64,000 bases of DNA, taken from positions 191,704,001-191,768,000 of the forward strand of contig OX597814.1 in NCBI GenBank assembly GCA_951406725.2, given 5' to 3'. The stretch is from Octopus vulgaris. Its lineage: Eukaryota. Position 1 is the first letter of the stretch. Every line of letters starts with the position of its first letter. Shown one piece after another: positions 1,003 to 53,760 of this stretch. The position numbers were made by a program, and so were the translations under genes. The notes below the pieces were generated by a model. That model was not told the origin of the DNA and made no database searches. It was given only the letters and a program-made list of their open reading frames with translations.

Positions 1003-2223
1003 CGCTACCGTTATTATCATCATTTATTAAGCATGCTGGTTGAAATGCTTAGCGGTATTTTGTCTGTCTTTACATTCTGAGTTCAAATTCCACTGAGGTC
1101 GACTTTGCCTCTCACCCTTTTGGGGTCGATAAAATAAGTATCAGTGGATAATTGATTAATCGTGTAATCCCCTTTCCAAAATTTCAGATCTTGTACCTAT
1201 CACAGAAAGGATTATTATTAATATTATTGTCATTGTTGTTGTTGTTATTATTTTTGATTGATTTGATCCAAGTTCAGTATTGGCATAAGGAAGCAATGCC
1301 CGAAGGTAAGAAGATCAGATTATTGTGGTTAATCTTCATCAGTAATTCTTGCAGACTTGTAACAAGATAGGAACATAAATAGGCATGGATTTTCAGTTGA
1401 AGTTTTATTTTCTGTTTTGAGTCAGACTAATTCTACCAAACCAAAGTACAAACTCTTGTATTCTTTCTTTTACATTCTGTTGTGTCTGGAGAGAGTCATT
1501 TTCTTTTTGTGCCTTATAATGTAACACACCCACTGGTAAAATATCCACTTATTTCTTATTTTTATTTTCCTAAAATTTCTTTTACACTTATATATCTTTT
1601 ATTCCTTGCGCTGCAGCCATAACGAGGTACTGCCTTAACAAGCTTTGATTAATCATATCAACTCCAGTACTCATTGATATCTATTTGTCAAACTGCTAAG
1701 TCATGGGACATGCACATAGAGCACAGTTTTTCAAGCAGTGTCAGTATGAAGACAGATTTGGAAGCAGTCTTGGCAACACACAACTTTTGAGTCAAGAGAG
1801 ATTAGTGTTTGCTCGAGGATTAATGGGAATATTTTAAGCTTTTCCCCATCTGGCTTGGATTTGGGATGGTGCTACCATTGACAACTGATATTAGATTAAT
1901 CTTGTTTTATCACTGATAAGATTTCCCTAGTCATTTAGGACTTGCTTGACCTGCTAGAAACAATGTCATTAACAGACGTGCTAAAAGTGGTCTGACATCA
2001 TAAAAAAGAAGGAAGGACATACTAATTAATGTAGCTTTAAATAAATGTTGTCCAGCATCATCATCGTCACTTAGTGGCTGTTTTCCATACTGGCATGGGT
2101 TAGAAAGTTTGACCGGAACTGGTTGGCTGGAGAGCTGCACCAGGTTCCAGTCTGTTTTGGCTTGGTTTCAATGACTAGATGCCTTTCCTAATGCCAACCA
2201 CTCCACAGATTGTACTGGGTGCC

Positions 2224-2842
2224 GAGGTGAGCTGGCAGAAACATTAGCACACCGGGTGAAATGCTTAGCAGTATTTCATTCTGAGTTTAAATTCCACCGA
2301 GGTCGACTTTCCCTTTCATCCTTTCGGGGTCAATTAAATAAGTACCAGTTACATACTGGAGTCGATATAATCGACTTAATCCGTTTGTCTGTCCTTGTTT
2401 GTCCTATCTGTATTTAGCCCCTTGTGGGTAGTAAAAAAATAGGTATTTCGTCTGCCACTATGTTCTGAGTTCAAATTCCGCTGTGGTTGACTTTGCCTTT
2501 CATCCTTTCGGGGTCGATTAAATAAGTACCAGTTACACATTGGAGTCAATATAATCGACTAAATCCATTTGTCTGTCCTTGTTTGTCTCCTCTGTGTGTA
2601 GCCCCTTGTGGGCAATAAAGAAATAATAAACTTTAGCATGCCAGGCGAAATGTTTAGTGGTATTTCGTCTGCCACTACGTTCTGAGTTCAAATTCCACCG
2701 AGGTCGACTTAGCCATTCATCCTTTTGGGGTCGATTAAATAAGTACCAGTTACACACTGGGGTCGATGTAATCGACTTAATCCGTTTGTCTGTCCTTGTT
2801 TGTCCTCTCTGTGTTTAGCCCCTTGTGGGTAGTAAAGAAATA
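2224..2842 (+). mobile_element. Trimer of tRNA-derived SINE family A (Meta-SINE-like central domain)
   Basis: Head with B-box GAGTTCAAATTCC; domain GCCTTTCATCCTTTCGGGGTCGAT. Exact 17-bp TSD AGATTGTACTGGGTGCC at 2207 and 2843. Confidence 0.85.
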
Positions 2843-2959
2843 AGATTGTACTGGGTGCCTTTTATGTGTCACCATCATGAGTGCCTCTAACATGTCATTG
2901 GCATGGGTGCTTATTACATGCCACTGGCATAAGTGCCTTTTATGTGTCATCAGCATTGG

Positions 2960-3200
2960 CCTTGACTATGATTTCACTACACTCGACATGTCTTTCAAGC
3001 ACAGCAAATCGCCAACAGTCTTGGACATTTGTCATTGCCTCCATAAGACTCAACTTCCAAAGATCATATTTTGCTACCACATCCTAAGTCTTCCTAGGTC
3101 TACCTTTTCCACAGATTCCCTTATAGTAACAGATTGTTACTTCTTTAGGTAGCTGTCCTCATTCATATGCATCATATGGCCATACCAGCACAGTCTTCTT
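2960..3200 (-). mobile_element. Decayed RTE 3' end
   Basis: Minus strand RPRKT*DVVAKYDLWKLSLMEAMT...WRFAVLE, homologous to the C-terminus of the 31235 element. Confidence 0.65.
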
Positions 3201-4135
3201 ATAAAAAATAAATATCAATACATCTGGAACGTCATTGATTATCATGGTGTTAGTAATCAAACTGGCCAAATATTCCACCTGTTTTATGTTCAAACTGACC
3301 AAATCTGCCCCCACTCATGTCAACCCTACAATGTCATTCTAAAAATAGTCAACCACATCATCAAAATCTCCAATCTATGAGATAATATATAATTAATTCA
3401 AAACAGTCTAAGTGCAGGCATGTGGTACGAAGCTTGCTTCCCAACCATATGAATTGGGGTTCAGTCCCACTGTATGGCACCTTAGGTAAGTATCTTTTAC
3501 TACAGCCTCGAGCTGACCAAAGCTTTGTGAGTGGATTTGGTAGATGAAAACTGAAAGAAGCCTGCCATATATGTGTGTCTGTGTTTGTCTTCCCATCACT
3601 GCTTGACAGCCAATATTGGTGGGTTTATGTCCCTGTAATTAAGCAGTTCAGCAAAAGAGACTGATAGAATAAGTACAAGGATTAAAAAAAGAAAAGTCCT
3701 GGGGTCAAGTTGTTTGACTAAAACCCTTCAAGGCAATGCTGCAGCATGGCCACAGTCAAGTGACTGAAACTAGTAAAAGAACAAAAGAATAAAAGAAATA
3801 AGCATTACATTTTACAGAGTGACCTGAATTCTGAAAGGTCAAAGGTAATCTCGATCAGGGATGATCTGGGATTAAACAACACCATCTTGTGGCTCTTATG
3901 TGTTATGCTGAGAGTTGGTGATGTATACTGCATCCCAGACAGGACTCCAAATGAAGTCAATTGTGCAGATATTATCTGATATAGAAATCAGTATGTTCGA
4001 TAGAATGGATGAATATCATTTATTTTATCAAAAGGAGACAGTCTACTCTAAGAAGCAGTCATAAACAGCCAAGGGTTAAACCCAGAATAGACTGTAATAA
4101 TGTATACTAATAAATATTACATATGCATATATATA

Positions 4136-4176
<41 letters not shown>

Positions 4177-4220
4177 GGGGTGTGGGTGTATGTGTATATG
4201 TATGTATATCATATATATGA

Positions 4221-4269
<49 letters not shown>

Positions 4270-4414
4270 AGCATGGGTGTGTGTGCATGTGTGTGTATGT
4301 GTATATGTATGTATATCATATATATGAATATATATGTATATATATGTGTGAGTGTGTGTGTGCAGATACACATATATATATCTATCTATATATGTATGTC
4401 TATAAATATATATG

Positions 4415-4461
<47 letters not shown>

Positions 4462-4739
4462 ATATGCATATATATTTATATATGTATGTATAGGTCTATA
4501 TATATATATGTGTAGGTGTAGGAATGGCTGTGTGATAAGAAGATATAGGCCCAGGAGTGACTGTGTAGTAAGTAACTTGCTTACCAACCACATGGTTCTG
4601 GGTTCAAGTCCCACTGCATGGCACCTTGGGCAAGTGTCTTCTACTATAGCCTCAGGCTGACCAAAGCTTTGTGAATGGATTTGGTAGATGGAAACTGGAA
4701 GAAGCCTGTCATATATATGTATATCTATATATTATATGA

Positions 4740-5200
4740 GAGCTGCAATGCTGTATGGGAGTGAGACATGATGTTTGAGAGAGAGAGGGAGATGGCAATT
4801 TTGAGAAGGAATGAGAGAGCAATGGTGAGAGAAATGTGTGGCGTGAGGCTGTTTGATAAGAGGAGGACTGAGGACTTGATGGGGATGCTGGGGTTGGAGG
4901 AATCAGTGGAACAGCTGGTATGGGCGAATGGAGTGCAGTGGTATGGGCAAGTGTTGAGGTGGGATGAGGAGCCTTTTCTGAAGAGGGTGCTAGAGTTTGA
5001 GGTAAATGGACAGTGAAAGCGAGGCAGACTGAGGAAAATGTAGAGGGGACAGGTGGAGGAGGAGATTGGGAAGGTTGGCTTGAGAAGGGAAGATGCCCAA
5101 AATTGGGCAAGATGGCGAGATAGTGTGAGGGTGGTTGCTATGGCACTGAGGTAGATCCGGCTACCCCCATTAATGGGAACAAAACTCGCATTCAAAGTGA
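4740..5200 (+). mobile_element. RTE-like LINE 3' end, different family
   Basis: ILRRNERAMVREMCGVRL...VQWYGQVLRWDEEPFLKRVLEFEVNG. Confidence 0.75.
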
Positions 5201-5205
5201 TGGAG

Positions 5206-5243
<38 letters not shown>

Positions 5244-7004
5244 GTTGGTGTTAGGAAGGGCATCCAGCTGTAGAAACTCTGCCAGATCATATTGGAGCCT
5301 GGTGCAGCCATCTGGTTTGCCAGTCCTCAGTCAAATCATCGAACCCATGCTAGCATAGAAAGCAGATGTTAAATGATGATGAAACGATGATGATATATAT
5401 TTATATGTATAAACACTCACACATGTTTGTTGTTCAATAGACTGAGAGATTACTACCAAACTTGGGAAAAGGTGTGGGTTGGTAACAAGAAGTGCATTTG
5501 GTCAAGAAAAACTCTGTTCCAATATATTCTCTTCTGACCCATGCAAGCATGGAAAAGTAGAAGTTAAACGGTGATGCTGAAGCTGATGATAATGAGAACG
5601 ATGATAACGATGGTAATGACAATGACAATAATGATGATGATGATAATGATGATGATGATGATGATAATGATGATAATGATGATGATGATGACGACAACGA
5701 CGACGATGATGATGATAACAATGGTAATGGCAATGACAATAATGATGATGATGATAATGATGATAATGATGATGATGATGATGATGATGATGATAACAAT
5801 GGTAATGACAATGATGATGATGATAATGATGATGATGATGAAGATGATGATGACGATGATGATGATGATAACAATGGTAATGACAATGATGATGATGATG
5901 ATGATAATGATGATAAGGATGATGATGATGAAGATGATGACAATGATGATGATGATGATAACAATGGTAATGACAATGAAAATAATGATGATGATGATAA
6001 TGATGATGATAATGATGACGATGATGATGATAACAGTAATAATGACAATGATGATGACGACGACGACGACAACCATCATGGTAAATGAACACATTAAGAT
6101 TTCAAGACACAAATATTTTGCATGGAAATGAATAATAAAAAAAAGTGCGATAAAACATGCAATGATTAAAAAGCAAGTTATAAAAAGGAAATAAAACACG
6201 AAAACTTAATAGCTAGGTCAGGTTTAGACACTGCCAACATCTCTGCCTGTCTACCATTGTATTCTTGTCTTGTGCAGCCAAAAGCACCATTTAACATTTT
6301 CTGACTTGGTTGTCAGTTGCAAAACACCCACATCCTTCAGGTTAGTATTGTTTCAGTACGTTAAATAGTCTCGGTAGCAATTTTTACACACAATCTATCT
6401 TATATAGTGTTATATTTATTCCAAACCTAACTGCACCTGTGTTATTTTTACTTCATTGGAATATCCATGGCGCCACAGTTATGGGATTTTATCTATCAGT
6501 TGTCAGTTTGATTTTTGAAGAACATCGAATCTCAGCTCTTTCTCTTCATCTTTCCCATTGTTTTTCTGAGGAAGGGCATTGCTTGTGTTTCGAACAAATT
6601 GTTCCTCTTCACCTGTTTTAATTGTTTTTTATTGACCTTTCATTTTTGTTTTTTGTTTTTAGTTTTTAGATTTTCTTTTTCTTCTCTTATTTTCCTTATG
6701 TGTTTTTCTTGACAGTTTTGTACGCTTTCCTCAGCAACCATTTTCTTTCCTTCCTCATAAAATAATACAATGATACAGTCCATGCCACAGTTGGATTATT
6801 TCAGCAGGCCTATTTAACCGCATAATTTTTACCATTCTTTATAATAATAATAATAATAATTATAATAATAATGATGATGATGATGATGATGATAATAATA
6901 ATGATAACAATAATAATAACAACAACAATAGTAACATAATAATAATAACATAATGATCAACAACAATAATAATAATAACAATAATAATAATAATAATAAT
7001 AATG

Positions 7005-7035
<31 letters not shown>

Positions 7036-7104
7036 TAATAATGATAATAGCAACAACAACAACAACAATAATAATAACAATAATAACAATAACAATAATA
7101 AATA

Positions 7105-7590
7105 ATGACACATGAGAGTATTCCTTGTGATCATAATATCTCAGTAAAAGAATCTGACAAGCTCAGATTTGCTAATTGAAATTGGAAAATTGTGGTATCT
7201 CAAGGCAGTTACAATAGCATTGATTGCAAGAGCATTTGGAATGATCAACAAAGGAACAGCAAATTATTTGAGAATGATGCCTACATTACCATCCAAGCAA
7301 AAAGTGAAAAATATTCTTTTATGCTCTAGGCACAAAGCCCAGAACTTGGGAGAGGGGGGGCCAGTCGATTAGATTGACCCCAGTATGCAATTGGTACTTC
7401 ATTTATCGACCCCAAAAGGATGAAGGGCAAAGTCGACCTCAGAGGATTTGAACTCAGAACATAAAGGCAGACGAAATACCGTTAAGCATTTTGCCAATGT
7501 GCTAACGTTTCCGCCAGCTAAAGTGCAAAATATTGTTGTAACTAGTATGTTACATGTATTGAGAAGAGCATTGTCACTGTGAGAATGATT
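7105..7590 (+). mobile_element. Dong/R4-type LINE REL-endonuclease remnant split by a SINE
   Basis: SIPCDHNISVKE..IEIGKLWYLKAVTIALIARAFGMI.. then VQNIVVTSMLHVLRRAL. The SINE (7316-7519, -) has TSD AAAGTG[A/C]AAAATATT at 7301 and 7520. Confidence 0.75.
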
Positions 7591-7683
7591 ACAACCCACG
7601 TAAACATTTTTTTTACTTTCTTTTTACTTTTTCTGTTTTCTTTCTTTTTGCTCATTTTATTTTCACATAACTTAACTTTGTAT

Positions 7684-8000
7684 GTGGAGGTGCAATGGCC
7701 CAGTGGTTAGGGCAGCGGACTCGTGGTTGGAGGATCGCGGTTTCGATTCCCAGACCGGGCGTTGTGAGTGTTTATTGAGCGAAAACACCTAAACCTCCAC
7801 GAGGCTCCTGCAGGGGGTGGTGGCGACACCTGTTGTACTCTTTCGCCCCAACTTTCTCTCACTCTTTCTTCCTGTTTCTTGGGTAACACTGCAATGGACT
7901 GGCATCCCGTCCAGCTGGTTTGACACATACGCCACAGAAACTGGGAAACCGGGCCCATGAGCCTGGCTAGGCTTGAAAAGGGTGCATAAATAAAAAAAAT
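7684..8000 (+). mobile_element. tRNA-derived SINE family C (others at ~20700-21470 +, 59490-59765 -)
   Basis: tRNA-like head TGGCCCAGTGGTTAGGGC...GGTTTCGATTCCC, then a non-tRNA body and A-rich tail. Confidence 0.8.
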
Positions 8001-8059
8001 AACTTTGTAAATGAACAATCTGGTGTGACTATCTTAAGGACCTATCAATGTATAAGGTG

Positions 8060-8930
8060 AGTTTCTTTGCCCTAGGTGTCAAAAAGACACTTGGCATGAA
8101 ATGGGAACAAAATTAAAAGAAGAAAAACTCGTAATAATAACAAAATGTATTCCATCCTAAAAGAAATACTGACCAACTCTATCTGCCAAGAAGGGAAGGT
8201 GGTAGAGGATTATTAAACACAGAAAACACTGTTGGTATTGTGATACTGGATCTGAAAAGGTGAACTGGCAGAAACGTTAGCACGCCGGGCGAAATGCTAG
8301 GCGGTATTTCATCTGCCACTATGCTCCGAGTTCAAATTCCACCGAGGTCGACTTTGCCTTTCATCCTTTCGGGGTCGATTAAATAAATACCAATTACACA
8401 CTGGGGTCGATGTAATCGACTTAATCTGTTTGTCTGTCCTTGTTTGTCCCCTCCGTGTTTAGCCCCTTGTGGGTAGTAAAGAAATAGGTATTTCGTCTGT
8501 TGCTATGCTCTGAGTTCAAATTCTGCTGAGGTCGACTTTGCCTTTCATCCTTTCGGGGCCGATAAATTAAGTACCAGTTACGCACTGGGATCGATGTAAT
8601 CTACTTAATCCCTTTGTCTGTCCTTGTTAGTCCCCTCTGTGTGTAGCCTCTTGTGGGTAGTAAAGAAAGAGGTACTGGATCTGAAAAATGATGCTGTACT
8701 GAGTAAAGAAAGAATACTTTTGGCAATTGAAGATACTCAAAGAGTGACTGAAACAATAGAAGAATTCAAAGAGAAAAGGAAGAACAACAGAATGAACAAA
8801 TGGAAAGATATGGAGCAGCATGGCAATTCATGCAACAAGCTGAAAATGCTGAAAGTGAAACCCACTGGATTCAGTTGACAAATGGGAACTTGAAACGAGA
8901 AGCAGAAATGTTAATTATAGCCTCAAGATA
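8060..8930 (+). mobile_element. Dong/R4-type LINE RT C-terminal remnant split by a SINE dimer
   Basis: HPKRNTDQLYLPRREGGRGL motif; continues W..MEQHG and GNLKREAEMLIIA. Confidence 0.8.
8259..8672 (+). mobile_element. Dimer of SINE family A
   Basis: Exact 15-bp TSD TACTGGATCTGAAAA at 8244 and 8673. Confidence 0.88.
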
Positions 8931-9667: not shown

Positions 9668-9889
9668 TTATTTCTTTATTGCCCACAAGAGGCTAAACAT
9701 AGAGGGGACAAACAAGGACAAACAAAGGGATTAAGTGATTACATCGACCCCAGTGTGTAACTGGTACTTATTTAATTGACCCTGAAAGGATGAAAGGCAA
9801 AGTCGACCTTGGCAGAATTTGGACTCAGAATGTAACGGTAGACAAAATACTGCAAAGCATTTCACCTGGCGTGCTAACAATTTTACAAA

Positions 9890-23865: not shown

Positions 23866-26169
23866 GATTGGTAGATAGATAAATATGTACATATAAATGT
23901 ATATATGGATGCATGCATATGCATACATATGTGTGTGTTTGTTGTTTAGCCCCAGGGTAGGCCACTTAATTAAGCAGGCTCTAATCAATGTGCTATTTTC
24001 ACTGCTATTATTTTTAACCAAATTTTTGGTTTTACACTGTCTGAATGTGATGTTTTTCACGCCAACTTCTAACAAGTCAAGAAGTCACATAGAAGTTCCC
24101 TTATTGGTTTATATATATATATATACATATATATGTGTGTGTATATGTGCATATGCAGAGTGCGTGGGATATATTGGCATTTGGTAGTTATAAGAGGAGA
24201 TTTGTATGTGGTGTTGACAATAAATAAATAAATAAATACATGAATGAAACTATGTCAATAGCCACACACACAAACACATACTCATGTTGCAACAAATAAG
24301 ATTAATAGAATGTTACATTCTGTAATTCTTGGTCTCTTTCATCAAAGTTTATTTTATTTACCTGATATCCGATTTCAACAACCATCAAAGATCTTTAACA
24401 TCAATTCCTTTAGTTCTTATTTATGCTTAAACCCTTTCATATAAGCATTATATGAAAGCATTTATGCTTAAACCCTTTCATATGCCATTCATTACCAAAA
24501 TAACTCTGTATTGTGGTTTCATTTACACATTTCTCTCAGTAGCTGACCTACTCTATTTAAAGGGATCTAGTTAAAGATCAGGCTCAGAAATGTTTCCTAA
24601 ATAATTGCCACACTTAAGAAGATCATGAAACAACAGGCTCTTGGAAGGCAGCCAGCAACTTCCTCTTTTATTCATTCACACTTAAACACTGAACTTATTA
24701 ATTGCAGTTGTTCTGTTAAATCTTGCTCAACATTCCGTTAATTATACTACCCTGTTGATACATATATAACATTGTTCATCATCGGGTGAGACAATAAAAC
24801 AGTAAGACATAAGTTAATTCTAGTAAGCAATATTGTTAACATCTGTTTTAGGTTTCTCGCCTGTTCACTCAAAAAGCCAAGGAAAACCATAAAGAATCCT
24901 ACATGAAATTATGATTATGAAATAATCTTTATAGATCTTACCTTCAGAACTTCATTTGATCAACCAAATGATGTAATTTTGAGCCATCAGTTGATGCACA
25001 GCTTTGAGCCATCAATTGATGCAACCTGCATAGTTACTTTTGATCCTCCGAAAGTTAAAACCTGCATAATTATAAACCACTGGATAATTTTAATTGCTCA
25101 GTTTTAGTTATTTTCAATTAAATCTCAAGAGAAATGTTTGTTATTTTCTTCTCCGGGTAACTCCTCTTTGCAGTAACTTCACCATTAGTTTTCCTGTCAT
25201 AATCCTTTCTACTTAAGGGACAAGGCCTGAAATTTTGGGGGAGGGGACTAGTTGATTACATCAATCCCAGTATTTCACTTGTGCTTAATTTATCTGTTTC
25301 TTTATTACCCACAAGGGGCTAAACATAGAGGGGACAAACAAGGACAGACAAACGGATAAAGTTGATTACATCGAACCCAGTGTGTAACTGGTACTTAATT
25401 TATCGACCCCGAAAGGATGAAAGGCAAAGTCGACCTCGGCGGAATTTGAACTCAGAACGTAATGGCAGACGAAATACGGCTAAGCATTTTGCCTGGTGTG
25501 CTAATGTTTCTGCCAGCTCACTGCCTTTAAACAGGGGTAGCCCTCCTCCTCTTCATCATCATCATTGATGAGGATGTACCTGTGGAGCTGAGAGAAAGAA
25601 TCAAAATTGTGTGCAAATTTATCTCCAGTTGATTTGCTTGAATGAAACAAATTAAAAATGAAGTGGTTATGAGACATTTTCTTCTAATTATGAAATATAT
25701 TACCAACTGTACAATGAAAATATTCTAATCAAACATAGATTAATTGTCGATTCTACCAAGCTTCATTTATCTTTTCAAAATACTTAGGTACAGGTGTGAC
25801 TGTGTGGTTAAGAGATTTGCTTTGCATCCATGTGGTTTTATGTTCAATCTCACAGCATGGCACCTGAGCAGGTGTCTTCTGCTATAGCCCCAGGCCTTGA
25901 GAATGTATTTGGTAAATGGAAGCAGAAAGAAGTCCATTGTAGTAAGAGGTTTCCTTCCCAACCACATACTTCCAGTATCAGTTTCAGTATGTGGAACCCT
26001 GGGCAAGTGTTTTCTGCAAGAGCCAATATTCCTTGTGAATGGATTTGGTTTGCAGAAACTGAAAGAAACTCATCATGTGTGTGGGCATGCATACGTGCAT
26101 GCGTGTTTGCATGCAGTCATTAGACTGCAGCAAGCAAAAGATAAAAGAAAAAAGATATATAACTTTGAT

Positions 26170-28224: not shown

Positions 28225-29050
28225 TCAAATCTTAAGAGTCTTTCCAAGGATTCTTACAGAATATAGGATGGCACTTTCCTGTTGATCTACAACAGGAGTG
28301 TTACTTCCAATTTCTTTCAATGGCATTTTGGGTGTCGGGCCAAGTGCCCCTGTATCCACAAGAATAATTGTTGTCTTAGTCTTCCACAGCCACCTCAGCT
28401 TTCTGGTTAGATCTTGGTATTTCTCAGTTTTTTCAATATCTTTGGTATCAATTCTGCTATCATAGGGAATTGCAAAATTCATGATCTTACATTGCTTATT
28501 TTGTCTTCTATAATCATATTTGGTCCTCTTGCTTCAATAGTATGGTCAGTCTTTATTTCTTATTTCTTTACTGCCCACAAGGGGCTAAACATAGAGGGGA
28601 CAAACAAGGACAGACGAAGGGAAAAAGTCAATTACATCGACTCCAGTGCATAACTGATGAAAGGCAAAGTTGACCTCGGCGGAATTTGAACTCAGAACGT
28701 AACAGCAGACGAAATACCTATTTCTTTACTACCCACAAGGGGCTACACACAGAGGGGACAAACAAGGGCAGACAAACGGATTAAGTCGATTACATCGATC
28801 CCAGTGCATAACTGGTACTTTATTTATTGACCCCGAAAGGATGAAAGGCAAAGTCGACCTCGGCGGAATTTGAACTCAGAACGTAACAGCAGACAAAATA
28901 CCGCTAAGCATTTCACCCAGCACGCTGCCTTATGGTCAGCCTTTATGGGGAAGCCGACATGATCCTGAAATTCGTATTTTCTATCACAGCCCCTGGTTCA
29001 TGTTCATACCATTTTGCTGTTATTTTGAAGCCACACACCTGGCAAACATC
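28225..29050 (-). mobile_element. Dong/R4-type REL remnant split by a SINE dimer (28557-28930)
   Basis: NFAIPYDSRIDTKDIEKTEKYQDL...W.TKTTIILVDTGALG. Confidence 0.8.
28557..28930 (-). mobile_element. Dimer of SINE family A
   Basis: 16-bp TSD TATGGTCAG[T/C]CTTTAT at 28541 and 28931. Confidence 0.85.
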
Positions 29051-35637: not shown

Positions 35638-36754
35638 TGATAGGGAAGATAACCACCCCATGAATGTCTCTAGAGATCATTGGACTAGACTAGTTTCTCT
35701 TATCAGTTATAGGCTCATCAGTGTGTATATACTATGTACTTCATACAGCCTTAAGAGCTTTTAACTCTTATTTCTTGCAATATCAGTGCTTCAGTACCCT
35801 CAGTCATAATTAGTCTTGATTCAAGTTTTCCTTTTGGGTTTTATATTGTGCCTAGCTGTTTGTATTAATTTTTAATATACACATTAGCATTTCACTGAAT
35901 AAGCCATAAAATTATATGGTAAATGTATGTACTGATAGTCCGATTTAGCAAAAGCGTAGAGCAATTGAGTAGTCACTAATGACAAGCCTGTTACTGATAG
36001 TCTAGTCCAGTGATCTCTAGAATCATCATCGTCATCGTTTAATGTTCGTTTTCCATGCTAGCATGGGTTGGACAGTTCGACTGGGGTCTGGGAATCCAGG
36101 AGGCTGCACCAGGCTCCAGTCTGATCTGGCAAGGTTTCTACAGCTGGATGTCCTTCCTAACGCCAACCACTCCGTGAGTGTAGTGGGTGGTTCTTATGTG
36201 TCACCGGCACAGGGGCCAGAGGAGGTTGGAAATGGCCATGATTGGTTGGTGCATTTTTTGTGCCACTGGCACAGAAGACAGTCAAGGCAGTGCTGGCATT
36301 GGCCACGTTCGGATGGTGCTTTTTACGTGCCACCAGCACGAGTATCACAACTGCAATTTCCATTTGATTTTTTGGTGCTGATGTACTTGACACAATAGGT
36401 CTCCTCAAGCACAGCAGGTCGCCCTATGGTCCAAGGTAAGCTCAGCAGGTTGTCAAATATATATATATATATATATATATATTGTGTTTCATACAGCATT
36501 AAGAGTTTTTAACTTTTTTTTTTTTGTAATATAAGTGCTTTGGCAGCCTCAGTCACATCCATAAATTTTATAATTAATTAATAATTATAATTGAGGGTGC
36601 ACGAGGCACTAGTGTTCTGTAAATAAGAGTTGAAAAGTACTCTAATAAGCCACCATTTCACTGAAAGTGGCCACTTATGCTATTATTATCATTATTATTA
36701 TTATTATTATTATTATTTATTAAAAATAATAATGATAATAATAATAATAATCAA

Positions 36755-39404: not shown

Positions 39405-40771
39405 CATATGTTTTTATGAGCTGTGAGTTCATGGCTGTTTCCTGCACCAGTTTCGCATAGCCCCAGCCCATCCAAAGTACCTTGGATTGCAGAACGACCT
39501 GCTGTGCTTACCTTGGATCGTAGGGTGACCTGCTGTGCTTGAGGAGACCTATTGAGTCAAGTACATCAACATCAAAATAAATATCAAATGGAAGTTGTAG
39601 TTGTGATACCTGTGCCAGTAGCATGTAAAAAGCACCATCTGAATGTGGCCGATGCCAGTGCTGCCTTGACTGGCTTCTGTGCCGGTGGCACGTAAAAAGC
39701 ACTAACCGATTGTGGCTGCTGCCAGCCTCCATTGGCACCTGTGCCGGTGGCATGTAAAAAGCACCCACTACACTCACAGAGTGGTTGGCGTTAGGAAGGG
39801 CATCCAGCTGTAGAAACACTGCCATATCAGACTTGAGTCTGGTGCAGCCCCCTGGCTTCCCAGACCACGGACGAACCGCTCAACCCATGCTAGCACGGAA
39901 AACAGACGTTAAACGATGATGATGATGATGTTAGTTTCATGTGATGAAAACAACTCAGCATTTTTAAACATGTCTAGTGCCTTAGGGCAATCCTTAGGCT
40001 GTGCCCACATGGCACGACAAGCTAAAAACAAGATTGTTCCATTTTAAGCTTGGTATGTAATGTGGGCACAGCCTGAGGATTGTCCTAAGATATCAGATGT
40101 GTTAAAAATTGCAGTCTGAGCTGTTTTCATTGCTTGAAAGTAATAGTAGCTCATAAAAAAATATATTGTGTTTATTAAGTTTTAAATATTTATCTCTCAC
40201 CAAATGGAGTGCTTTTTTGTTGATCTTACCATTAGGGAACAATATACTATGTATGTATGTGTGTGTCTCGAGCAAGGCACTTTATTTCACGTTGCTCCAG
40301 TTCACTCAGCTGTAGAAATGAGTTGCGACGTCACAGGTGCCAAGCTGTATCGACCTTTGTCTTTCCCTTGGATAACACTGGTGGCGTGGAGAGGGGAGGC
40401 TGGTATGCATGGGCGACTGCTGGTCTTCCATAAACAACCTTGCCCGGACTTGTGTCTAGGAGGGTAACTTTCTAGGTGCAATCCCATGGTCATTCATGAC
40501 CGAAGGGGGTCTTTACCCCCTTTATAGCAATAAGAAAATGGAGGGGATGAATAGCTTAGTTTTTCCTTGGGGCTGGCCAGATTGGAGCAATCTCAAGATT
40601 AATCAGCCGAAATTGCGAGGATGATCCGGTTCTTGACTGAAGATAAAAGGCTTCGAATGACCTGTCCTTGTTTTTTTGTATTGTCTATCTGGATGTTTTA
40701 TTGTCCCTTTTTGTATCACCTAGTTGTCCGGATGTTTTGTGTTCTTGTCCCATTTTGTATTTTATTATACA

Positions 40772-43749: not shown

Positions 43750-43842
43750 ATATGGAGAGGGGGTAAGTTGATTATATTGACCCCAGTACTCAACAGGTAC
43801 TTAATTTATCAACCCCGAAAGGATGAAAGGCGAAGTCAACCC

Positions 43843-43878
<36 letters not shown>

Positions 43879-44289
43879 CCTTTCTACTATAGGCACAAGG
43901 CCTCAAATTTGTGTTGATTACATCGACACCAGTGTTCCACTGGTACTTAATTTATTGGCCCTGAAAAGATGAAAAGCAAAGTCAACCTCAGTGGAATTTG
44001 AACTCAGAACGTAAAGACAGGTGAAATACTGCTAAGCATTTCACCCAGCGTGCTAATGATTCTGCCAGCTTACCACCTAATAATAATAATAATAATACTT
44101 TCTATTGGAGACACAAGGCCTCAAATTTGTGGGGACAGGACTAGTTGATTACATCAACCCCAGTGTTCCACTGCTACTTAAATTATCGAACCCGAAAAGA
44201 TGAAAGGCCAAGTCGACTATGGTGGAATTTGAAACTCAGAACATAAAGCATATTGCCCAGTGTGTTAATGATTTTGCCAGCTCATTGCC

Positions 44290-46018: not shown

Positions 46019-46238
46019 ATATTTCTTTACTACCCACAAGGGGCTAAACATAGAGGGGACAAACGGATTAAGTCGATTACATCAACCCAGTGCGAAACTG
46101 GTACTTTATTTATCGACCCCGAGAGGATGAAAGGCAAAGTCGACCTCGGCGGAATTTGAACTCAGAACGTAACGACAGACGAAATACGGTTACGCATTTC
46201 GCCCGGCGCGCTAACGTTTCTGCCAGCTCGCCGCCTTA
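46019..46238 (-). mobile_element. Young monomer of SINE family A (others at ~1030-1225 +, 9000-9175 -, 9668-9885 -, 25203-25528 -)
   Basis: Full head GGCGGCGAGCTGGCAGAAACGTTAGC...GAGTTCAAATTCCGCC with CpGs intact. Confidence 0.85.

Positions 46239-49689: not shown

Positions 49690-53760
<4,071 letters not shown>

Follow-up and report, generated by a model that had tools for sequence, protein, structure and literature searches.

Results

Tandem SINE units inside single target-site duplications

The window analysed here is a stretch of 64,000 nucleotides of Octopus vulgaris DNA on contig C1 (OX597814.1, positions 191,704,001 to 191,768,000) of a 2.8-Gb genome. It holds three multimers of a short interspersed element (SINE) whose positions we number along a 228-nt reference sequence. 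The first-pass annotation had described a trimer at 2224-2842 and two dimers, each lying in one target-site duplication (TSD), and this description is correct: the flanking copies agree at 17/17 positions for the trimer, over 17 bp with one mismatch for the second multimer and over 16 bp with one mismatch for the third.

In the trimer, on the forward strand, the left TSD copy (2207..2223, AGATTGTACTGGGTGCC) is identical at all 17 positions to the right copy (2843..2859). Unit 1 (2224..2441) is a full SINE with the head beginning at 2226, a body and a TAGT-type tail, and carries no head remnant upstream. Unit 2 (2442..2625) starts at SINE nt 45 (GGTATTTC), ends in a CAAT-type tail and differs by 11.4% from unit 1 and by 10.8% from unit 3. 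The last unit (2626..2842) starts at nt 12, a second recurrent junction, and has a TAGT-type tail. The second multimer, also on the forward strand, consists of a full SINE with a TAGT-type tail (8259..8486) followed by a unit that starts at nt 45 (8487..8670) and is 13.3% divergent from the first. Its left TSD copy (8242..8258) begins GATA and its right copy (8671..8687) begins GGTA; the repeat had been taken as 15 bp, which is the perfect core of the 17-bp duplication. The third multimer lies on the minus strand between TSD copies of 16 bp (5' copy 28931..28946, 3' copy 28541..28556; one mismatch). Here, unit 1 (28719..28930) has a deletion in the first 25 nt of the head and a TAGT-type tail, and unit 2 (28557..28718) starts at nt 45, has an internal deletion, bears a CAGT-type tail that runs to 28561 and is followed by AGAA, and differs by 8.3% from unit 1. 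The shared junction is thus real, with exact positions (2441/2442, 8486/8487 and 28719/28718) a few bases from those first given (~2436, ~8481 and 28711). Across the three multimers, unit-to-unit divergence is about 7-13% (7.4-13.3%), and all three lack a host head remnant. Monomers of the same family lie on the minus strand at 46021..46237 and 25295..25526, together with a 5'-truncated monomer at 9669..9878.

Composition of the SINE family

The SINE unit is 228-233 nt long, contains no ORF and is dispersed, with 59 loci in 1.17 Mb of random DNA. This census drew 117 random 10-kb stretches from outside the window and scored loci by the SINE tail. Loci lying closer than 80/150 bases to the end of a stretch, and duplicates recognized by their flanks, were dropped. 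Extrapolation yields roughly 140,000 family loci, half of them composite. A TSD score of at least 9 was reached by 23/41 single-tail, 10/25 two-tail and 14/24 three-or-more-tail loci, compared with 0.2% in the null.

Within the head, an A-box-like motif (TGGCAGAAACG) and a B-box-like motif (GAGTTCAAATTC) are visible; ARAGORN and Rfam reported no tRNA in the SINE units. The SINE consensus lacks a run of four T (T4). A hairpin in the head folds (z = -3.0 for one monomer head) and its pairs are mostly kept across SINE families, with the nt-45 junction at the 3' end of its loop; the fold of a whole dimer end (z = -0.37) lends no support to a special structure there. The head variant G40/C45 is common among family-1 monomers (C45 in 24/65). 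A sister SINE family shares nt 1-163, and many dimers end in the sister-family body and tail. Octopus SINEs were reportedly treated by Ohshima and Okada in 1994, and the family may already carry a name. Nucleotides 88-163 may correspond to the Meta domain of MetaSINEs. Membership of that superfamily is placed at a 66-bp Meta domain with 61-86% identity to the consensus (PMC4824008).

Two recurrent junctions

The exact nt-45 junction has 26,015 matches genome-wide, against 0 for a reversed-pattern control. When 0-30 free bases were allowed between the tail and the B box, a pattern that detects only starts at nt 39-69, 33,945 joins were found, and 94/100 among the matches listed have the canonical spacing. 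The first-pass annotation had proposed a recurrent junction and had allowed that junctions might prove random genome-wide. In the random set, 31 of 43 junctions start at nt 45, 8 at nt 12 and 4 at other positions, so that recurrence is upheld and randomness is not. The further-5' start of the third trimer unit, also noted at first pass, is confirmed at nt 12 and recurs: a genome-wide count of tail-to-head joins gave 1,251, and nt 12 is the start in most of the 100 matches listed. The link between nt-12 joins and CAAT-type tails holds at 27/29 targeted loci, but at 1/8 in the random set, where five of the eight come from one array.

Of the 59 random loci, on which the distribution of array lengths rests, 27 are monomers, 25 have two units, 5 have three, 1 has four and 1 has six. 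Hence 32/59 are multimers: about half of the family copies belong to head-to-tail chains, in which a single exact base serves for most of the joins. One six-unit array (L348) has all its joins at nt 12, inside a 16-bp TSD that begins GGTA. A different arrangement was seen at G000:C1:14455975-14456499 (L163-L165), where four full, near-identical SINEs are separated by an identical short spacer, in the manner of TSD1-(SINE-TSD1)n.

The junction base is an insertion target

Joins of a head fragment to the 5' end of a new SINE gave 205 matches near nt 50-64, compared with 75 and 96 in two control windows, no more than a two- to three-fold enrichment. Among 28 distinct nested-type loci near nt 45, the host sequence resumes with nt 45 onward after the insert in 20, does not in 4, and 4 have no tail-1 insert; the corresponding figure for controls is 8/20. 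At nested loci, the remnant head (13.9%) and the last unit (12.3%) are far more divergent than the inserted unit (4.6% in the head, 3.2% in the core), and the divergence of the remnant is correlated with that of the last unit (rho 0.55, p 0.009, n=21). Left and right copies of nt 45-52 agree at 167/183 positions, private variants included. Net overwriting of the target by RNA was not seen at these loci, with 7 changes toward the consensus and 6 away from it. Position 45 is therefore an insertion target, at which young SINEs lie inside older SINEs with a TSD.

The choice of target follows the tail. Among elements with a detectable TSD, the left copy begins GGTA in 12/24 with TAGT/TAAT tails, as opposed to 0/15 with CAAT/CAGT tails (background 0.26%, p 0.0009), and in the random set a GGTA flank is found at 10/24 and 0/14, respectively. 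Genome-wide, GGTA follows a TAGT/TAAT tail 827 times and a CAAT/CAGT tail 25 times, a disparity to be read against a ratio of only ~2:1 (24:14) for the terminal tails themselves. Of 30 TAGT loci followed by GGTA, 16 have a clear TSD, and in 15 of these GGTA is also present in the left copy; the letters therefore belong to the target. Either pairing or the endonuclease may set the target: the lack of net overwriting gives pairing no support, but tail type predicts target, for which an endonuclease alone would give no account unless different LINEs move different tail types.

An L1-like LINE occupies the same site

A search with the tail motif of a long interspersed element (LINE), in which the pattern covered the tail and left the flank free, found 75 places genome-wide. 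Of 20 examined, 19 have a LINE body, in each case joined directly to SINE nt 45, whereas the single copy with a SINE body lacks this join. Exact LINE-type joins at nt 45 number 87 across the genome. Two near-full LINE copies of ~5.3 kb with ORF1 and ORF2 (L374 and L377) lie between a SINE head (nt 1-60) and a SINE body (nt 46 onward), and an internally deleted copy (L351) lies between a SINE head and nt 46 onward. The latter (L351:1937-4306) bears ORF1, lacks most of ORF2 and is 95-99% identical to full copies over the shared parts.

The LINE encodes ORF1 and ORF2 with an L1-like reverse transcriptase. Pfam identifies RVT_1 and a zinc knuckle (zf-CCHC), and the best match in the PDB is human L1 ORF2p (E 2e-57; R2 1e-20). 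Homologues carry PF03372 and PF13966, and the best named homologue of the LINE proteins is from Argonauta hians. The element may belong to the Tx1 clade. Its flank is the same in 19/19 of the LINE-bodied copies examined, where more than 20% of copies with one flank type has been used to define target specificity (PMC4494074).

The SINE 3' tail is 82% identical to that of this LINE over nt 194-227. A second, L1-like LINE family has a tail related to that of the SINE as well (~80% over nt 185-226). It is very young, with many intact ORF2 frames of 1,149 amino acids (L241-L270, for example G000:C2:129805448-129806173), its ORF2 is 61% identical to that of the nt-45 LINE, and its 3' flank is mostly (TATC)n. 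The nt-45 LINE resembles the SINE more closely in its tail and shares its site, and for this reason we set the second family aside as the main partner; it may still move some tail types. On the likeness of the tails and the shared site, the SINE likely borrows the machinery of the nt-45 LINE to land in its own kind. Set against this, the LINE tail is CAAT-like, as opposed to the TAGT tail of the GGTA-targeting SINE, so that any match of a given LINE to a given SINE is provisional.

Several further features of these LINE loci were observed. In 12/19 nt-45 copies, the base that follows at nt 45 is C, not G, and the LINE flank may thus track the G40/C45 head variant. At L374 (G000:C3:153111900-153118700), the LINE tail with SINE body 46-228 occurs twice, 6,450 bp apart and with equal identity to the consensus, likely through local duplication of the whole LINE-in-SINE unit. 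Near-identical ORF1-like frames stand in tandem at L353:2499-7760.

Origin of dimers without a host remnant

We favour, with a probability of roughly 65%, a reading in which nt 45 is the target of both the SINE and the L1-like LINE, the junction is made anew by target-primed reverse transcription with LINE enzymes, composites are re-transcribed and pasted, and longer arrays arise by local duplication. In a first step, the LINE endonuclease would nick at nt 44/45, and an RNA that reads through its tail into GGUA(UUUC) would pair with the nicked strand. Each tail type would in this way inherit its target from the 3' flank of the source: GGTA for TAGT, AGAA and nt 12 for CAAT. Read-through pairing of this type has been demonstrated for R2Ol (PMC6795142). 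In a second step, Pol III starting from the inserted head would read the whole composite; the unit contains no T4, and such a transcript would therefore span it. If reverse transcription were then primed at the last tail, the product would be a remnant-free dimer in a new TSD, as at the three loci of the window; if it were primed at the first tail, after which comes GGUAUUUC, a monomer would land on GGTA. A third step, slippage or unequal exchange across the 184-bp repeat, would add internal units.

The rarity of the host head remnant weighs against this scheme. It is kept in only 1/32 random multimers and in 3/58 junction-selected loci, one of them doubtful. The second step must therefore carry most cases, and since most dimers lack the remnant they were likely re-mobilized as composites.

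The most serious competitor is a switch of template in a single step under the same target rule: a growing cDNA near nt 45-60 would pair with the extension, GGUAUUUC, that another SINE RNA carries and would continue on that RNA, and most remnant-free dimers would be made in this way. Such a switch leaves no remnant, as in 31/32 random multimers, and the extension can pair with the head. The last units of remnant-free tail-1 dimers are as young as the first (4.0 versus 3.8%), which fits a switch equally well. Last units with other tails show family-1 letters close to the junction (G60 in 13/35 versus 2/18 monomers) and letters of their own family at nt 125-154, and 5' additions inside one TSD suggest that the reverse transcriptase of the SINE is able to jump. 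Sibling dimers, which re-mobilization might be expected to leave, were not found, and the haplotypes of first and last units are barely linked (r 0.06 over 89 loci, absent within classes), in a test too weak to separate re-mobilization from switching. Yet a switch needs two RNAs together in about half of events, whereas read-through of a composite yields the same structures without an extra step and also explains TAGT monomers on GGTA; moreover, nested loci able to act as sources exist. We therefore regard the switch as unlikely, if the best of the alternatives.

Seamless insertion in place is considerably less probable. Here, a new copy would prime inside a resident SINE, at nt 45, and pairing with the resident head would resolve the 5' end of the newcomer, so that no remnant is left and the outer TSD belongs to the resident. 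This needs only the demonstrated target site and would account for the missing remnants, but the heads of arrays that end in the tail of another family speak against it. In 29 remnant-free arrays of this sort, the heads look like family 1: at 0.086, their divergence is close to the 0.074 of family-1 monomers (p 0.26) and below the 0.121-0.217 of monomers with other tails. The family-1 letters C45 and G40 are present, with C45 in 8/29 array heads but 0/18 other-tailed monomers, and head divergence does not track that of the last unit. T16 occurs in 9/29 of these heads, and a minority may be seamless insertions.

The hairpin loop, circular RNA and a single master

The first-pass annotation had placed the cause of the junction in the RNA: the SINE transcript would be cut, or the reverse transcriptase would stall, at the loop in the anticodon position, after which the enzyme would jump end to end from that 5' end to the 3' end of another RNA. 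The junction does fall where the loop of a conserved hairpin ends on its 3' side, the tail end GAAATA is complementary to TATTTC, and the 5' additions suggest that end-to-end jumps take place elsewhere. The same base is, however, a DNA target with TSDs for both SINE and LINE, so that a stop or cleavage at the loop is unneeded for the position of the junction. The junction letters also follow the upstream tail type, not the head pool: nt 45 is G in 105/105 aligned downstream units as against about half of heads, a contrast partly selected by the search patterns, and a direct count gave 33/38 versus 10/18. We consider a loop-set junction very improbable. What stands of the proposal is the jump itself, since end-to-end jumps probably occur in the SINE family. 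Head-only fragments, often ending near a TTT run, were added 5' of full SINEs inside one TSD, some in tandem runs of 5-6 copies (G000:C11:81438136-81438776; C8:16138599-16139189; C4:19472626-19472937; L222, L227, L232 and L233). These could be jumps of the reverse transcriptase onto prematurely ended Pol III transcripts.

The relationships among units bear on the two remaining proposals. Adjacent first and last units are a median 10.5% apart, compared with 10.1% for copies at different loci, and internal units of long arrays a median 1.9%. A tree of 170 rows, to which each locus contributed one head unit and its last tail-1 unit, requires 47 label changes for the 64 downstream units, compared with a mean of 51 after shuffling. 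Well-supported branches force at least 12 of the 47; resolution is poor and the bootstrap unsettled. Second units have all the polymorphisms of head units, bear three different tails and do not form one lineage with fixed diagnostic changes, as would a true dimeric SINE of the Alu type. The first-pass argument against a single fixed dimeric master therefore agrees with both the label changes and the many dimers that end in another family's tail.

One ancestral dimer as the source of all second units could appeal to a weakly supported group of 22 rows, 19 of them second units, and to the link of the junction to one tail type, but with at least 12 forced changes, all head-unit polymorphisms shared, three tails and 0% of bootstrap trees uniting second units, it is scarcely credible. 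No more credible is the rolling-circle copying, proposed at first pass, of a circular SINE RNA closed at the hairpin loop, to which the near-identity of internal units in long arrays and the fixed period of 184 bp might point: window units are 7-13% apart, dimer units are as distant as unlinked loci, last units often have another family's tail, variants lie in blocks along arrays, most arrays begin with a head that such a circle would lack, and Rfam (window 2200-8700, E up to 1) reports no ribozyme family.

Longer arrays

If an array grows by duplication inside a dimer, the 5' part of a middle unit should match the last unit and its 3' part the first. This last-then-first mosaic described the middle units better in 28 arrays, whereas 9 favoured the opposite order and 5 were tied; among arrays with at least four units, the corresponding numbers are 15, 2 and 1. 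Of 16 long arrays, 8 had no usable TSD. In the other 8, neighbouring internal units differ at 50/2,876 sites (1.7%) and TSD copies at 21/137, a mismatch inflated by lenient alignment. Internal units are closer to one another than the TSD copies are, and they therefore probably postdate the insertion. Local duplication is thus the likely mode of growth for arrays of four or more. The first-pass annotation had listed such post-insertion duplication as an account opposed to its own, and for these arrays it appears to hold; the window trimer differs, for its three unrelated units and two junction types fit serial joining, unlike longer arrays. The longest array examined has 8 units (L311), and the sampled arrays, of 2-8 units, are dispersed.

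Discussion

Comparison with known systems

As described by Kojima (2015, PMC4494074), Tx1-Mar LINEs and the SINEU-3 element of crocodilians present the nearest parallel: a target-preferring LINE and a SINE share a site in an abundant repeat, and serial insertion produces tandem SINEs. Their target is an unrelated Mariner, and the tandem copies sandwich a TSD (PMC4494074). In the octopus, by contrast, the SINE targets its own head, and downstream units are without nt 1-44; about half of the loci are multimers, mostly with no host remnant.

Arrays of the form TSD1-(SINE)n-TSD1 in Scapharca broughtonii likewise have a first unit with a full head, repeated head-truncated units and one outer TSD (Martelossi et al. 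2024, PMC11481361). According to the passages of that paper on these arrays, they make up ~3% of SINEs, tails are truncated except in the last unit, and unequal recombination between TSDs is suggested; these passages name neither a fixed family-wide junction nor a head-targeting LINE (PMC11481361). Octopus arrays differ in that tails persist in all units and the junction stays at one position. Those with at least four units show a trait of the squamate sSats, which, according to Vassetzky et al. (2023, PMC10702118), are tandem part-SINE repeats whose first and last units stand apart from a more uniform interior. The same work describes sSats that reach hundreds of units and lean towards subtelomeric positions (PMC10702118), whereas octopus arrays have 2-8 units in our sample, are dispersed and begin with a site-specific insertion. 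Multimers of the Dip SINE, cited there, comprise nearly half of the copies in a jerboa and consist of full-length units (PMC10702118).

For the pairing step, the likeness is to R2Ol, in which transcribed sequence past the 3' end base-pairs with the target and fixes where reverse transcription begins (PMC6795142). R2 has another type of endonuclease and an rDNA target (PMC6795142), and in the octopus the pairing is deduced from the linkage of tail and flank.

Tandem units of 150-400 bp dispersed in animal genomes are also known as non-LTR retrozymes. The octopus SINE is unlike these: no hammerhead or other ribozyme was found, dimer units are unrelated (10.5%), and the element combines a Pol III-type head with a LINE-type tail.

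In the openly accessible literature covered, we found no account of a LINE that targets the head of its partner SINE or of the nt-45 junction. The passages of PMC13282606 on SINE, tandem and satellite do not mention the system, and the passages of PMC4758252 and PMC3531059 consulted hold nothing specific to it.

A possible closed loop and its bearing

The favoured scheme can be extended, tentatively and at somewhat less than even odds, to a closed loop between SINE and LINE. The LINE would be specialized on one base in the head of the SINE that it mobilizes, the SINE would act as the landing pad for both, and the target would be inherited through the transcribed 3' flank. Composites, including hybrids with the tails of other families, would be the main sources, so that a seed of the 184-bp tandem repeat would have been planted at tens of thousands of loci.

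Such a system offers a testable path from a dispersed retroposon to tandem repeats and new composite SINE families, on which site-specific self-insertion fixes the junction, read-through carries it to new loci and duplication of the DNA lengthens the array. It is also a natural experiment on the shares of endonuclease and RNA-DNA pairing in the target choice of non-LTR elements, for the tail types of a single genome differ in their four-base target, and this question bears on programmable retrotransposon insertion. Composite loci, if treated as independent monomers, mislead both repeat annotation and age estimates.

Transcript reads and other repeats in the window

In raw reads of three RNA-seq runs on two monomers, both strands are equally covered and no pile-up of molecule starts or ends was seen; in such reads, Pol III or circular RNA is indistinguishable from read-through of genomic arrays, and reads over the nt-12 joint are mostly of one variant. 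The nt-45 joint is also present in contigs of two RNA-seq runs labelled as other organisms, a record of presence only. Elsewhere in the window, three partial units of the sister SINE family stand in tandem on the minus strand at 43764-44245, with tails and (ATT)n between them. A 356-nt inverted repeat pair at 36017-36372 and 39579-39934 has 84% identity, and a long degenerate microsatellite block extends over ~49780-53720.
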